From positions 47 through 64,046 of the forward strand of contig MNRS01000016.1 of the NCBI GenBank assembly GCA_001916065.1: DNA of 64,000 nucleotides, read 5' to 3'. Both the position numbers and the translations under genes were made by a program. Below are positions 11,345 through 16,873 of the stretch, piece by piece. Numbering within the stretch: the stretch's first letter is position 1; every line of letters begins with the position of its first letter. This DNA comes from Clostridium sp. 28_17 (GTDB taxonomy: Bacteria; Bacillota; Clostridia; TANB77; CAG-508). The notes under the pieces are model-generated. The model saw only the letters and a program-made list of their open reading frames with translations. It did no database searches and was not told the DNA's origin.

Positions 11345-12187
11345 GTGAGTAGAAAATTATTTTGTGAATATAGTCCGATTACATATGAAATTTCACTTGT
11401 AAAAGAAACAATAAAAAAAGATATAGAAGATTATTTTATAAAAAAATATAAAATAGCAAAGAAAAAAGATTATAACAATTTTAAATACATATGGAAGGGC
11501 GATGCAAAAATTCTATTTAGAAAATTGCATGGAGTAGATATGCAATTACAAATTAACAAAGCAAAAAATTTGGAAATTGCTAGTAAAAAAATTGATGGAA
11601 TAGTAATTCAACCAGGAGAAGTTTTTTCGTTATGGAATTTAGTAGGAAAGACATCAAAAAGAAAAGGGTATCTAGAGGGTTTGACTGTAAGTGATAGTGA
11701 ATTAGGAAAAGGCAGAGGCGGCGGATTATGCCAATTAGGCAATCTTATTCATTATTTAGTATTACATACTGATTTAGAAGTTATAGAAAAACATCATCAT
11801 TCTGATGCATTATTTCCAGACGAAAAAAGGAGAGTACCATTTGGAACAGGAGTATCTATAGCATATAAAAGATTAGATTACAAATTTAAAAATACTTCTG
11901 ATTGTCCTGTACAATTAAGAATATGGCAAGATGATACAATGATATATGGGGAATTGAGGGCAAATAAGCCAATTAACTATAAATATAAATTAATAGAAGA
12001 GGATAATCATTATGCAATGGAAGATGGGATATTTTATAGAAATAGTAAGGTATATAGAATTAAAATTGACAAAGAAACTGGAAATGAAATCAAAAAAGAA
12101 TTAATATTAGATAATCATTCAAGGGTTATGTATGATTATAATTTAATACCTAAAGAACAAATTAGGGAGAATACAAATGTTAAATAA
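11345..12187 (+). CDS. VanW-domain protein with no signal peptide or TM segment
   Basis: GRGGGLCQLGNLIHYLVLHTDLEVIEKHHHS matches the VanW core (GGG.CQ ... H.S). GTG start. Its 3' end overlaps the next gene by 11 nt. Confidence 0.8.
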   Translation: MSRKLFCEYSPITYEISLVKETIKKDIEDYFIKKYKIAKKKDYNNFKYIWKGDAKILFRKLHGVDMQLQINKAKNLEIASKKIDGIVIQPGEVFSLWNLVGKTSKRKGYLEGLTVSDSELGKGRGGGLCQLGNLIHYLVLHTDLEVIEKHHHSDALFPDEKRRVPFGTGVSIAYKRLDYKFKNTSDCPVQLRIWQDDTMIYGELRANKPINYKYKLIEEDNHYAMEDGIFYRNSKVYRIKIDKETGNEIKKELILDNHSRVMYDYNLIPKEQIRENTNVK

Positions 12188-13580
12188 GATTTTAAATAAT
12201 TTAAAAATGTATCCAGAAGATGAATGTTATGAAATAAATGATAAAGTTTATAAAAATAAAGATTTATATAAATATGTTTGTAATATATATAACTATTTAT
12301 TAAAAAATAATCCAAATAGAAAAAGTGTGATTGTTTATGGTCATAAAGATATTTATATGATTGCTTCTTTTCTTGCATGCTCTTTTGCGGGGATGGCATA
12401 TATACCAGTGGATGAGTCAATTCCAAATGAGAGAAGGAAAAAGATAGTTGAACAGGTAAAACCAAATGTAATATTAGATAAAAAAATAGAAAAAACAATG
12501 CTTAATGAAAAATATAATGAAATATCAAAAATATATATGACAGGAGAGGACACATATTACATTATTTTTACATCAGGTAGTACAGGAATACCTAAGGGAG
12601 TTCAAGTATCATATAACAATGTTAAAAGTTGTATGAAGTGGTTAGAAAATATTTGTAATATAAAAAATGGAATCATTTTAAACCAAGCAAATTATTCTTT
12701 TGATTTGTCTTTACCAGATATTTATTTGCCGTTACTAACAAGAAGTAAACATTACATATTAGAAAGAAATACTCAAAAAGACTATGTAACATTGTTTAGA
12801 ATGCTTAAAAAAAGTAATTCAAATTTGGCAGTTTTTACACCATCATTTCTAGATTTATTATTAATAGATAAATCATTTGATGAAAAATTAATGCCTAAAT
12901 TGAATATGATACTACTTTGTGGTGAAAAATTAACAAAATCAACAGTAGACAATGTTTTGAAAAGGTTTCAACATATAAATTTATATAATTTATATGGACC
13001 AACAGAATGTACATTTGCTGTTACTGGTATAAAAATAGAAAACTCAGATGATATTTCAATAGGAAAGCCAAAAGATGATACTAAAATTTATATAGTAGAT
13101 GATAATATTCAGGAAGTAAAAGAAGGAAAGGTAGGAGAAATTTTGGTTACTGGAAAAAGTGTAGCCAAAGGATATCTTAATAGTAATGATAATTTTATAA
13201 TATATAAAAATGAAAAAGGCTTTTTAACAGGTGATTTAGGGTACAAGAAAGAAGATAAATTTTATTGTATAGGTAGAAAAGATAATCAAATAAAATATAA
13301 GGGATATAGAATAGAATTGTCGGAAATTGAGAATGTATTTTACAACTTTGGATATTTTGATAAAATAGTTGTTGCTACAAGGAAAACAGAAAATGGAAGA
13401 GTTAAAAAGATACTTGCATTTTTAAAGTTAAAGGGATCATTAAATATTCAATTAGAAGAGATTAAAGAAAGATTAAAGAATATTCTACCGGAATATATGA
13501 TTCCAACTATAAAAATAGTACAAGAAATGCCGTTAACTGAAAATGGAAAAATAGATATAAATAAATTAATGGAGAAATAA
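12177..13580 (+). CDS. dltA: DltA-like carrier-protein ligase (AMP-binding adenylation enzyme)
   Basis: Motifs: GMAYIPVDESIPNERRKKI, YIIFTSGSTGIPKGV, LYGPTECT, TGDLGY, and GRKDNQIKYKGYRIELSEIE. Confidence 0.8.
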   Translation: MLNKILNNLKMYPEDECYEINDKVYKNKDLYKYVCNIYNYLLKNNPNRKSVIVYGHKDIYMIASFLACSFAGMAYIPVDESIPNERRKKIVEQVKPNVILDKKIEKTMLNEKYNEISKIYMTGEDTYYIIFTSGSTGIPKGVQVSYNNVKSCMKWLENICNIKNGIILNQANYSFDLSLPDIYLPLLTRSKHYILERNTQKDYVTLFRMLKKSNSNLAVFTPSFLDLLLIDKSFDEKLMPKLNMILLCGEKLTKSTVDNVLKRFQHINLYNLYGPTECTFAVTGIKIENSDDISIGKPKDDTKIYIVDDNIQEVKEGKVGEILVTGKSVAKGYLNSNDNFIIYKNEKGFLTGDLGYKKEDKFYCIGRKDNQIKYKGYRIELSEIENVFYNFGYFDKIVVATRKTENGRVKKILAFLKLKGSLNIQLEEIKERLKNILPEYMIPTIKIVQEMPLTENGKIDINKLMEK

Positions 13581-13581
13581 A

Positions 13582-15383: not shown

Positions 15384-16080
15384 TATTATTACAAGTTTAA
15401 AAATGGTAATATTTTTATTAATTGTATTGTTAATTGCACGTATAGCAATAATTGTTTTAGGAAATGGAAAGATAAATGCTTTAGAAGGATACTTGTATAG
15501 TATTGCAGCAAGTGCAACAGATTGTGATGCAACAAGTTGTGATGCTACTGGTGCAGATGCAACAAGTTGCGATGCTACGAGTGCAGATGCTACAAGTTGT
15601 GATGCAACAAGTTGTGACGCTACAAGTTGTGACGCTACAAGTTCAAATGCTATGGAAGTAAATAATCCAAATGTTGATGTTATAAAAAGTAACAATGAAA
15701 ATACTAAAAAACAATCAAATGATAATGCACAAGAAATTCAACCAAAAAATGAAAAAACAAAAGAAGAAATTAATGAAGTTATTGTAAATGACATTGTAAA
15801 TGATATTGCAGATGATAATGAAGATGAAAATGAAATTATAATATCAAATTACAGTGGAACATCGAACAATAGTAAAGATAATAAGGAAGTTGTAAGTTTC
15901 CTAGAGTCTCATAAAATGTATTTAATGATTATTGGAATGTGTGTAATAGCAATAGTTATTATATCTATAATTATAATTTTAGATAAAAAAGGTATAGAAA
16001 AGAGAAGAAATATTCAAAAACAAGAAGAGGAAGAAAGGATGCCAAAAGGATTAAAAAAAGATGATGAAAATAAATTCTAA
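15361..16080 (+). CDS. Bitopic membrane protein with an (A-T-S-C-D)x9 tandem repeat and an acidic Asn/Asp/Glu-rich loop
   Basis: N-terminal TM segment (IITSLKMVIFLLIVLLIARIAIIVLG), the repeat, an acidic region, a second TM segment (MYLMIIGMCVIAIVIISIIIIL) and a basic tail. RBS GGGGGA. It overlaps the neighbours on both sides. Confidence 0.7.
   Translation: MSQKKKNSIITSLKMVIFLLIVLLIARIAIIVLGNGKINALEGYLYSIAASATDCDATSCDATGADATSCDATSADATSCDATSCDATSCDATSSNAMEVNNPNVDVIKSNNENTKKQSNDNAQEIQPKNEKTKEEINEVIVNDIVNDIADDNEDENEIIISNYSGTSNNSKDNKEVVSFLESHKMYLMIIGMCVIAIVIISIIIILDKKGIEKRRNIQKQEEEERMPKGLKKDDENKF
15514..15648 (+). repeat. Nine in-frame 15-nt tandem repeats (GCAACAAGTTGTGAT and variants)
   Basis: The units read ATDCD ATSCD ATGAD ATSCD ATSAD ATSCD ATSCD ATSCD ATSSN. 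Confidence 0.95.
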
Positions 16081-16873
16081 TGTTTTAAAAATTTTTGCGG
16101 TAATAACAATGATAATTGACCATATAGGGTGCTATTTTTCCAGTAAAATAGCACCAGATATATATTATTTAATGAGGAGTATTGGCAGATTAGCAATGCC
16201 AATATTTTTGTATTTACTGGTACAGGGCTTTTTTTATACAAAAAATTTAAAAAAATATATATTTAGAATTTTCTGTTTAGCAACAATTACTCAAATAATA
16301 TTGCTAATATTGGGAATTATAAACAAAATGCAATTCCCAAATTATATATGTCATGAAAATGACTATCTTGGAGTATTGTATTCGTATATGTTATCATTAA
16401 TTTTTATATCAATGATAGAATATAAAAAGCCAATAAAGCAGTTCAATGATTTTTTTAATTTTGTTGTTAGAATTATTGTAATGTTTGTTATTATTTTAAT
16501 ATATGTAAATGTAAAAATAGAATTTGATATGAGAATTCCATTTATGTGTATAGAACTATATATAATTGAAAAAATGTTTATGGATAAGGAAAATTCAGTA
16601 TTATTTTTAAAGAGAAATTTTAATAGTAGAAAAAAATTTATTATATTTAAATTAATATATATATTATTAATTGAATTATCTTTTGTTAGTTCATTAGATT
16701 TTTCTAGTTATCATCCAGGATATAAATATGCTATTATATTTACTGCAATACCATTATTTTTATATAATGGTGAAAAAGGTGGCAATAATAAATTCTCAAA
16801 AAAAATATTTTATGGAATTTTTCCAATGCAACATTTTGTACTGTATTTAAGTGCAATGCTTTTTTTGAAATAG
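16061..16873 (+). CDS. TraX-family integral membrane protein
   Basis: The N-terminal LKIFAVITMIIDHIGCYF is the TraX-family signature (K..A...M..DH.G). The protein is polytopic. Confidence 0.7.
   Translation: MMKINSNVLKIFAVITMIIDHIGCYFSSKIAPDIYYLMRSIGRLAMPIFLYLLVQGFFYTKNLKKYIFRIFCLATITQIILLILGIINKMQFPNYICHENDYLGVLYSYMLSLIFISMIEYKKPIKQFNDFFNFVVRIIVMFVIILIYVNVKIEFDMRIPFMCIELYIIEKMFMDKENSVLFLKRNFNSRKKFIIFKLIYILLIELSFVSSLDFSSYHPGYKYAIIFTAIPLFLYNGEKGGNNKFSKKIFYGIFPMQHFVLYLSAMLFLK

Follow-up and report, generated by a model that had tools for sequence, protein, structure and literature searches.

A signal-less VanW protein coupled to a DltA-like enzyme and its carrier in Clostridia: a possible cytoplasmic module for aminoacyl transfer

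The subject of this study is a six-gene operon (positions 11345-16873, + strand) within a 64-kb stretch of contig MNRS01000016.1 from Clostridium sp. 28_17, the whole of which is referred to here as the window. Its genes encode, in order, a VanW-family protein without an export signal, a DltA-like stand-alone adenylation (A) enzyme, a DltC-like carrier protein (CP), a membrane protein of the Wzy_C family, a small membrane protein with tandem pentapeptide repeats (gene 5) and a TraX-family membrane protein. Comparisons with related genomes established that the conserved core of this operon is formed not by all six genes but by VanW, the DltA-like enzyme and the DltC-like carrier (the triad), and that the three membrane proteins (the trio) are a clade-specific addition of approximately 21 species, which depends on the triad in one direction only. 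The interpretation developed below, to which we give about an even chance of being correct, is that the triad constitutes a self-contained cytoplasmic aminoacyl-transfer module with VanW as its transferase, and that the trio extends this module to the envelope. The component families are known and the logic is like that of Dlt and AlmEFG; the pairing with a signal-less VanW protein and the extension by TraX, Wzy_C and a repeat protein are undescribed. An earlier sequence-only reading of the window had not recognized the gene combination as a described pathway, and a literature search agreed, finding no description of it and no link of VanW to DltA, carrier proteins or nonribosomal peptide synthetase (NRPS) chemistry.

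The evidence for a three-gene core comes from gene neighborhoods. A scan of reference genomes with the single A-domain protein found nothing, the species not being among the representatives, and alignments were used instead. The VanW alignment retrieved a subfamily encoded in 348 reference species; 80 loci were fetched and 85 non-redundant loci were analyzed, their open reading frames (ORFs) being labelled with jackhmmer profiles and their neighbors clustered de novo. The VanW, A and CP genes were adjacent in 77 of the 85 loci, with a median stop-to-start distance of -4 nt at both junctions. The A-domain gene directly followed VanW in 80 loci, at a gap of 5 nt or less in 74 of them, and such short or negative gaps imply translational coupling. 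Apart from Wzy_C, the repeat protein and TraX, no neighboring family was present in more than six loci. Three loci were exceptional, with VanW alone (L037 and L084) or VanW plus the carrier (L061), and no alternative activating enzyme was found in any of them. Across species, the VanW proteins are 65-85% identical, as compared to 52-70% for the A domains. VanW, which had been regarded as a peripheral, additional transferase in the sequence-only reading, must accordingly be moved to the center: together with A and CP it forms the invariant coupled core.

The chromosomal setting of the triad varies considerably. The A domain has many homologs that are 50-70% identical to it. A 68%-identical relative retains all six genes at another chromosomal place, between spoIIP and a GH18 gene, while relatives at 61-62% identity possess only VanW, A and CP, located inside the dcw cluster between an ftsI-type penicillin-binding protein (PBP) gene and murE-mraY-ftsW-murG; in one locus (L008) two unassigned ORFs separate the PBP gene from the triad. 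Further relatives have the three genes only, beside sortases or unrelated genes. Because the same six genes recur in other species, their association in the window is not a chance occurrence. A Pfam census of 121 flanking genes from 81 species identified unrelated housekeeping genes, such as those for DNA ligase, RpoC and YunB, and the only functionally coherent recurrent neighbor was an Sfp-type phosphopantetheinyl transferase, which adjoins the unit in four species. In one locus (L038) an FtsW-like gene lies directly upstream of the triad. As a separate observation, the triad is found directly downstream of tRNA genes in some species, and in one of these (L011) it is also directly upstream of a 16S rRNA gene (L011, 6759-6930 and 10177-11283; L057, 9522-9792), in highly expressed housekeeping surroundings.

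After the naming of VanW in the 1990s, what it does long remained unknown. Its fold is the only one known to form 3-3 peptidoglycan cross-links by way of a Cys thioacyl intermediate. Extracellular proteins with a VanW domain, among them the membrane-anchored, extracellular Ldt4 and Ldt5 of C. difficile, were identified as LD-transpeptidases (LDTs) in 2024 (PMC11348318). The VanW domain possesses a conserved, essential Cys along with His and Asp, and a thioacyl enzyme-substrate intermediate was inferred for it; VanW LDTs have carboxypeptidase activity as well, no LDT signal was obtained for four of the seven foreign VanW proteins tested, and the fold is not known to act on anything other than peptidoglycan stem peptides (PMC11348318). 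These results leave short VanW proteins without an export signal unexplained. The VanW protein of the triad is of this kind, as a hydrophobic 19-mer is absent from 93 of 94 family members and Pfam detects no PG_binding_4 or G5 domain. It is probably a cytoplasmic Cys enzyme, judging from this and from its conserved residues: C129 (within GGGLCQ), H152 and D178 are invariant in 48 homologs and are common to distant signal-less VanW proteins and to a classical VanW protein anchored by a transmembrane (TM) segment, the assignment of the Asp to the Cys-His-Asp triad being drawn from conservation and not from structure. Since VanW domains are Cys-dependent transpeptidases with a probable thioacyl intermediate (PMC11348318), VanW is the obvious candidate for the transferase of the module. 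An N-terminal RKLFCE motif is common to the triad VanW proteins. The NCBIfam vanW-gen profile (NF033128) aligns over positions 32-263 of 271 with a score of 193 bits, below its cutoff of 365, and the window contains no van genes.

A profile search of 1.84 billion representatives yielded 12,789 VanW proteins, and nearly all of the 150 closest representatives are 260-300 aa in length. Several relatives outside of the triad deserve mention on their own account. An N-terminal HAD domain (YqeG/PGP-phosphatase-like) is recurrently fused to a signal-less VanW domain (L093, 4452-5816, S. warneri plasmid NZ_CP054016.1; P0399; P0401), the profile search having added two such fusions to that of L093, which hints that this class of VanW works in the cytoplasm on a phosphorylated substrate. 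In L095 (2395-5825, B. mycoides plasmid NZ_CP035964.1), a stand-alone VanW gene is located directly downstream of genes for a BlaI/MecI-type repressor and an M56 (BlaR1-like) sensor, and this VanW may be inducible by cell-wall antibiotics. A weak phmmer match of VanW to the catalytic-Cys motif of arginine deiminase (E = 0.007) was probably due to chance and was set aside.

The adenylation enzyme and carrier are related to, yet distinct from, DltA and DltC. DltA is the best NCBIfam family for gene 2, below the cutoffs (NF003417, 394 vs 476 bits; TIGR01734, 378 vs 560), and DltC is the best family for gene 3, also below its cutoff (NF003464, 51 vs 68). The best single-domain match of the A domain in the PDB is DltA (3E7W, 253 bits), with NRPS A domains as close relatives there, and the A domain is 33.5% identical to B. 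cereus DltA. For an inspection of the substrate pocket, the B. subtilis and B. cereus DltA sequences were recovered from PDB alignments and 74 triad-linked A domains were aligned to them. In B. cereus DltA numbering, Asp197, Cys269 and Lys492 are invariant in all 74 A domains, Leu198 is kept in 73 and Ala302 in 72; Cys269 is the residue tied to D-alanine (D-Ala) selection in DltA. Met201 of DltA is replaced by Ala (Pro in the window), Thr293 by Cys, Ala or Ser (Leu in the window) and Val301 mostly by Phe. A comparison of the specificity pocket with that of D-Ala-specific DltA, which the sequence-only reading had suggested, was therefore divided in its outcome, with five residues conserved and positions 201, 293 and 301 changed. 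The pocket resembles the D-Ala pocket of DltA, for which reason the substrate is likely a small amino acid, plausibly D-Ala or a close analogue. The carrier family, of which 83 members were compared, keeps both the DS site and a DltC-type Trp at 90% conservation or more.

In the proposed mechanism, the DltA-like enzyme would adenylate a small, D-Ala-like amino acid and attach it through a thioester bond to the phosphopantetheine arm of the DltC-like carrier. Cys129 of VanW would accept the aminoacyl group from the carrier by transthioesterification and pass it to an amine or hydroxyl of a cytoplasmic acceptor, for which peptidoglycan or another envelope precursor would be the leading candidate, VanW thereby holding the place that DltB and DltD have in Dlt or AlmG in AlmEFG. 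Where the trio is present, it would extend this chemistry to the external side of the membrane, the repeat protein serving as an acceptor or shuttle; alternatively, it may draw on the loaded carrier directly by way of TraX. Precedents exist for a DltA/DltC-like pair that operates with a non-MBOAT transferase, in AlmEFG (PMC4278540), and for a small membrane protein that can shuttle D-Ala, DltX (PMC13653941). The identity of the amino acid, the acylation of VanW by the carrier, the acceptor and the roles of the trio are points that we infer. For the acceptor, a peptidoglycan precursor is the leading guess because no substrates other than stem peptides are known for the VanW fold, because the triad is in the dcw cluster in one clade, because an FtsW-like gene is upstream of it in L038 and because VanW relatives have van and bla associations.

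A number of observations weigh against this interpretation or parts of it. The pocket is unlike that of DltA at the three positions named above, and a T-box or riboswitch that might have named the substrate was sought with Rfam in the window and 15 related loci, where only tRNA and rRNA genes were found. No fusion of VanW with an A domain or a carrier was present among the 150 closest VanW representatives. Plasmid-borne signal-less VanW relatives, at 40-43% identity, have no A/CP partner, and dependence on a carrier is therefore not general to the class. The AlphaFold2 (AF2) model of VanW has a predicted local distance difference test (pLDDT) score of 76, with low confidence around the active-site loops, and a Foldseek search with it found no significant match in the PDB, in line with published work that describes the fold as new. 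As regards the acceptor, the flanks of the unit in 81 species showed no enrichment for cell-wall functions, which makes a peptidoglycan acceptor less likely; only one clade has the triad in the dcw cluster; and the MurE protein encoded beside the triad is of the DNPR type, specific for meso-diaminopimelic acid (meso-DAP). Peptidoglycan with meso-DAP is usually cross-linked directly, with no branches.

Of the 85 loci, 20 have the trio together with the triad, and these 20 belong to the closer relatives of the window; approximately 94% of the triad species show no orthologous TraX, Wzy_C or repeat protein. With VanW, the A domain, the carrier, Wzy_C, the repeat protein and TraX abbreviated as V, A, C, W, R and T, four gene orders were encountered: V-A-C-W-R-T, R-T-V-A-C-W, W-R-T-V-A-C and V-A-W-R-T-C. 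The first three of these are rotations of one another, the first being that of the window, the second that of L043, L046, L051 and L053 and the third that of L047 and L059; cyclic orders of this kind, in a unit that occupies differing chromosomal sites, are expected from tandem duplication with differential loss or from movement by a circular intermediate. A reciprocal scan with the TraX alignment found some TraX relative in 311 genomes, among which the orthologous subfamily (at least 278 bits) comprised 21 species. Every orthologous TraX adjoins a repeat protein, and Wzy_C as well wherever the contig reaches; lower-scoring TraX paralogs are solitary. Where the contig reaches, all orthologous trios but one are beside V-A-C. 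The exception, L098, has W-R-T alone, and its genome (CAKPBB01) has the triad in the dcw cluster on another contig (L041), so that within the loci fetched no trio was seen in a genome without the triad. The co-occurrence of the DltA-like, DltC-like, Wzy_C and TraX genes across genomes, which had been put forward as a check on the sequence-only reading, was hence borne out in approximately 21 reference species. In L098, a PAP2-family phosphatase is encoded about 1 kb upstream of the unlinked trio (5612-6247), a single case; the PAP2 type includes undecaprenyl-pyrophosphate phosphatases.

The repeat protein encoded by gene 5 is a conserved family, found in 19 loci and only beside Wzy_C and TraX. 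Its N-terminal part consists of a basic N-terminus, TM1 and a GK(F/V)xxLEGYMYS motif, followed by 5-12 tandem [D/N]-A-T-S-[S/C] pentapeptides and a C-terminal part with an acidic spacer, a VTFLE(S)HK motif, TM2 and a basic tail; long versions have a domain of about 150 aa within the acidic spacer. In the window, a DNA repeat of period 15 with 8.1 copies (15522-15643) encodes the pentapeptides, which are of the DATSC type. Gene 5 of L001 (11185-11871), a strain of the same species, is shorter by two DATSx units (228 aa vs 239 aa), and this difference suggests slippage-driven variation in a surface-exposed loop. That gene 5 is low-complexity noise was ruled out by the fixed motifs of the family. 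The Wzy_C protein has strongly conserved extracytoplasmic loops containing His and Arg (15 orthologs) and no sequence relative in the PDB, whether searched as a single sequence or as a profile. No glycosyltransferase, flippase or sugar-biosynthesis genes are present in the unit, and none recur in its flanks.

TraX is the member of the trio on which the strongest alternative turns. The sequence-only reading had placed TraX in the role of DltB, taking the aminoacyl arm of the carrier across the membrane and onto the repeat protein or a polymer, with Wzy_C and VanW in secondary roles; we consider this possible though unlikely. According to a 2025 study, TraX is the most divergent and a borderline member of the TmAT superfamily of transmembrane acyltransferases, with an Arg-to-Lys change in its TM1 motif, which for TmAT proteins is (D/N)-x-x-(R/K)-x10-H, Lys being typical for TraX (PMC12423673). 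The conserved residues of TmAT proteins mainly bind the adenosine and 4'-phosphopantetheine of the acyl-CoA that threads the membrane (PMC12423673), and because holo-carriers share the phosphopantetheine arm with acyl-CoA, a carrier-dependent TraX is conceivable by analogy. The window TraX keeps this motif as N7-x-x-K10-x10-H21 and also has R39-x-x-x-R43; across 66 diverse homologs, D20 and H21 do not vary and the conservation of K10 is 90% or higher, and N7 is invariant among the 17 orthologs only. Other points are consistent with the same role: F-plasmid TraX acylates a small two-TM membrane protein (PMC12423673) and gene 5 likewise encodes a two-TM protein, the carrier gene directly follows TraX in the V-A-W-R-T-C order, and DltX is a precedent for a small membrane shuttle of D-Ala (PMC13653941). 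However, an orthologous TraX is present in only about 21 of the 348 species and cannot be the general outlet of the carrier, and the proposal leaves without a role VanW, the best conserved and most tightly coupled partner. The known donors of TmAT enzymes are acyl-CoAs and not carrier proteins, and the AF2 model of TraX (10 helices, pLDDT 95.6) had no significant similarity to solved TmAT structures in a Foldseek search of the PDB, the best E-value being 0.22. TraX, like Wzy_C, has no sequence relative in the PDB by single sequence or profile. The earlier interpretation is thus partly supported: TraX as a transmembrane acyl-transfer protein fits the TmAT literature (PMC12423673) and the TM1 motif, but its use as a general substitute for DltB is not supported.

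A second alternative retains the triad as a functional unit but makes of it a minimal NRPS-like pathway, which would form a small diffusible product (a dipeptide, an aminoacyl-amine or a short homo-oligomer) with VanW as the catalyst of condensation or release. Transglutaminase-like condensation enzymes occur in some assembly lines, and a stand-alone A domain, a carrier and a Cys-His-Asp enzyme would make a plausible minimal one; the relatedness of the A domain to NRPS A domains in the PDB and the adjacent Sfp-type transferase in four species point in the same direction. Nevertheless, no tailoring, export, immunity or regulatory genes are with the triad in any of the 85 loci, its surroundings are housekeeping genes, and vertical conservation over approximately 350 species together with the very high conservation of VanW is unusual for secondary metabolism. 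The restriction of known VanW-fold substrates to peptidoglycan stem peptides (PMC11348318) is a further objection, and we judge this pathway improbable. More improbable still, in our estimation, is that VanW works independently of A and CP, as a cytoplasmic LD-carboxypeptidase or exchange enzyme on UDP-MurNAc-tetrapeptide in peptidoglycan recycling, with the linkage reflecting shared regulation. The carboxypeptidase activity of VanW LDTs (PMC11348318) and the distant signal-less VanW proteins that occur without A/CP are consistent with such a role, but overlaps of 4 nt and near-universal adjacency exceed what co-regulation calls for, and no recycling genes are linked to the triad.

The weakest alternative concerns the absence of DltB and DltD. 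As the sequence-only reading had claimed, neither an MBOAT/DltB protein nor DltD is encoded in the operon or in the window, according to a TM census of all ORFs and Pfam searches on the ten candidates of fitting size or topology. Nor was an MBOAT protein or DltD found beside the triad in the 85 loci, except for a separate system in L062 (15694-20152), where a six-gene unit is directly followed by genes for a second A domain (A2; 30% identity, with FAGE for FCGE), a second carrier (CP2), an MBOAT protein and a 358-aa protein. On the basis of this motif, A2 may activate a different substrate. An MBOAT route that comes, as in L062, with A and CP genes belonging to it speaks against a split dlt locus, in which genes 2 and 3 would be an ordinary DltA and DltC that feed a distant DltB/DltD for teichoic-acid D-alanylation, with VanW and the membrane genes as unrelated neighbors. 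Although DltA and DltC are the top NCBIfam families and the D-Ala-selecting Cys269 is kept, we rejected this reading as scarcely credible in view of the scores below the curated cutoffs, the three pocket positions that differ systematically from DltA, the adjacency or overlap with VanW in 77 of 85 loci and many chromosomal contexts, the A2/CP2 pair of L062 and the lack of MBOAT and DltD in the window.

The features of the operon and its boundaries are collected in Table 1. The gene positions and junctions given in the sequence-only reading all match the ORF list of the window, the six + strand ORFs overlapping or abutting with, in order, an 11-nt overlap, a 1-nt gap, a 2-nt gap, a 23-nt overlap and a 20-nt overlap. 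The block was correctly placed between the tsf terminator, downstream of the tsf ORF end at 11175, and the rnj promoter. The motifs YIPVDESIPNER, TSGSTGIPKG and GRKDNQIKYKGYRIELSEIE of the adenylation enzyme and LDS and DTWRSVDKIV of the 77-aa carrier are present in the translations, and the assignments to VanW, AMP-binding, PP-binding, Wzy_C and TraX all hold in Pfam searches. A GGGGA ribosome-binding site, read from the sequence, lies about 8 nt before the GTG start of the VanW gene. The candidate operon promoter is not among the results of a consensus promoter scan, its -10 hexamer ending in A. Rfam finds no RNA family in the window.

Table 1. Features of the six-gene operon and its boundaries in the window.
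Feature	Position	Strand	Basis or remark
Intrinsic terminator of tsf (upstream boundary)	11223..11237	+	6-bp stem with 3 GC pairs, then T-run
Candidate operon promoter (putative)	11271..11299	+	TTGCTT, 17-nt spacer, TGtTATAAA (extended -10); read by eye, candidate only
VanW-family protein, signal-less, 280 aa, GTG start	11345..12187	+	Pfam VanW (PF04294) 126.8 bits (cutoff 27)
DltA-like stand-alone adenylation enzyme, 467 aa	12177..13580	+	Pfam AMP-binding 188.9 bits, plus AMP-binding_C
DltC-like carrier, 77 aa; Ser32 in LDS, phosphopantetheine site	13582..13815	+	Pfam PP-binding 30.9 bits
Divergent Wzy_C membrane protein, O-antigen ligase/polymerase-like, 521 aa, ~13 TM helices	13818..15383	+	Pfam Wzy_C 45.5 bits (cutoff 31.7)
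Gene 5: two-TM protein; acidic extracytoplasmic loop containing tandem [D/N]-A-T-S-[S/C] pentapeptides	15361..16080	+	No Pfam family
TraX-family membrane protein, borderline TmAT superfamily, 270 aa	16061..16873	+	Pfam TraX 67.3 bits (cutoff 25)
Sigma-70 consensus promoter of rnj (downstream boundary)	16932..16960	+	TTGACA, 17-nt spacer, TATAAT; 12/12 matches

Proteins nearly identical to those of the operon come from metagenome-assembled genomes of uncultured gut Clostridia, with MEI3435068.1 ('Clostridia bacterium') as a cluster member, and three loci from strains of the same species (L001-L003) have the identical six-gene set between tsf and rnj. In one of these strains (L002, 15189-15962), a Y1_Tnp (IS200-type) transposase gene lies between rnj and gltX, where the window has only an 80-aa ORF (19248-19490). 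Elsewhere in the window, the N-terminus of a 549-aa protein (27299-28948) weakly matches the prepilin-type methylation motif (Pfam N_methyl, below cutoff) and a sortase is encoded at 38134-38811; these surface-assembly genes are near the operon, yet unlinked to it.

The wider meaning of the triad is that a signal-less VanW subfamily, tied to an amino-acid-activating enzyme and a carrier, provides a concrete biochemical hypothesis for such proteins, with a thioester entering and an aminoacyl group leaving. Dlt and AlmEFG are the two architectures for carrier-dependent envelope aminoacylation that we know of, and a cytoplasmic module with VanW as transferase would, if real, be a third, distributed among hundreds of uncultured gut and rumen Clostridia. 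Envelope aminoacylations usually control surface charge, resistance to antimicrobial peptides and host recognition. The six-gene version adds a strain-variable repeat protein and Wzy_C and TraX proteins without characterized relatives. A bolder extension, which we regard as rather doubtful, is that signal-less VanW proteins are in general cytoplasmic thioester-dependent aminoacyl transferases and not wall cross-linkers, that those of the present subfamily place a D-Ala-like residue from the carrier on a peptidoglycan precursor, and that a TraX/Wzy_C machine, which in the clade of the window would also draw on this carrier system, decorates the repeat protein. Were it true, stem peptides could be modified or branched by a third route, in addition to tRNA-dependent Fem/MurM enzymes and ATP-grasp ligases; a function would be suggested for the namesake VanW of vanB and vanG clusters; and the decorated, membrane-anchored [D/N]ATS[S/C]-repeat protein would be a protein-based counterpart of D-alanylated teichoic acid.

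Comparison with characterized systems reveals likenesses and differences for each part of the operon. The VanW protein shares with Ldt4 and Ldt5 the Pfam domain and the conserved Cys, His and Asp, with a thioacyl intermediate in those enzymes (PMC11348318), which, however, are membrane-anchored, extracellular and equipped with PG_binding_4 and G5 domains, whereas the triad VanW has about 280 aa, no TM segment or signal and translational coupling to cytoplasmic ATP-dependent enzymes. In architecture, it is more like the stand-alone VanW of about 275 aa from vanB and vanG clusters, whose vanW-gen profile aligns with the triad VanW near full length; this likeness is limited by the score below cutoff, the absence of van genes near the triad and the lack of a dedicated A/CP pair in van clusters. 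VanW of van clusters is likewise not known to have an export signal, and vanG clusters combine it with VanT. The membrane domain of VanT has the TmAT fold (PMC12423673). This combination parallels VanW and TraX of the operon and may point to a shared VanW-TmAT partnership.

The operon TraX is related to TraX/TmAT proteins such as AT3, HGSNAT and OafB by its Pfam match and TM1 motif, and differs from them in the absence of a conjugation or pilin context and, by analogy, in a donor that may be a carrier protein and not acyl-CoA. The Wzy_C protein has the Pfam match, approximately 13 TM helices and conserved His and Arg in extracytoplasmic loops in common with WaaL, PglL/PilO and Wzy. PglL-type enzymes glycosylate Ser/Thr-rich low-complexity proteins, and the operon Wzy_C adjoins a protein of that composition, although glycosyltransferase, flippase and sugar-biosynthesis genes are lacking.

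As in Dlt, a stand-alone adenylation enzyme is proposed here to charge its own carrier, about 78 aa long, with a small amino acid; Asp197, Cys269 and Lys492 of the A pocket are retained, as are the DS site and the DltC-type Trp of the carrier, and the six-gene version has a candidate membrane protein for passing the acyl group outward and a small shuttle or acceptor, as with DltB and DltX (PMC13653941). Unlike Dlt, the triad is without MBOAT (DltB) or DltD, its soluble proteins score below the NCBI cutoffs for DltA and DltC, its invariant partner is a VanW-fold Cys enzyme that Dlt does not have, and its associated membrane protein is TraX/TmAT-like and not MBOAT. AlmEFG, which attaches glycine to lipid A in Vibrio cholerae, is a three-gene operon composed of a DltA-like ligase, a DltC-like carrier and a non-DltB transferase that works on an envelope precursor at the cytoplasmic face (PMC4278540), as is only proposed for the triad. 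AlmG is a membrane enzyme of the lipid A acyltransferase type, in contrast to the soluble VanW-fold candidate of the triad, and no such domain was detected in the six operon proteins with Pfam or NCBIfam; moreover, the host is of the Gram-positive-type Clostridia and has no lipid A. Despite these differences, AlmEFG appears by analogy to be the closest match to the triad in overall logic.

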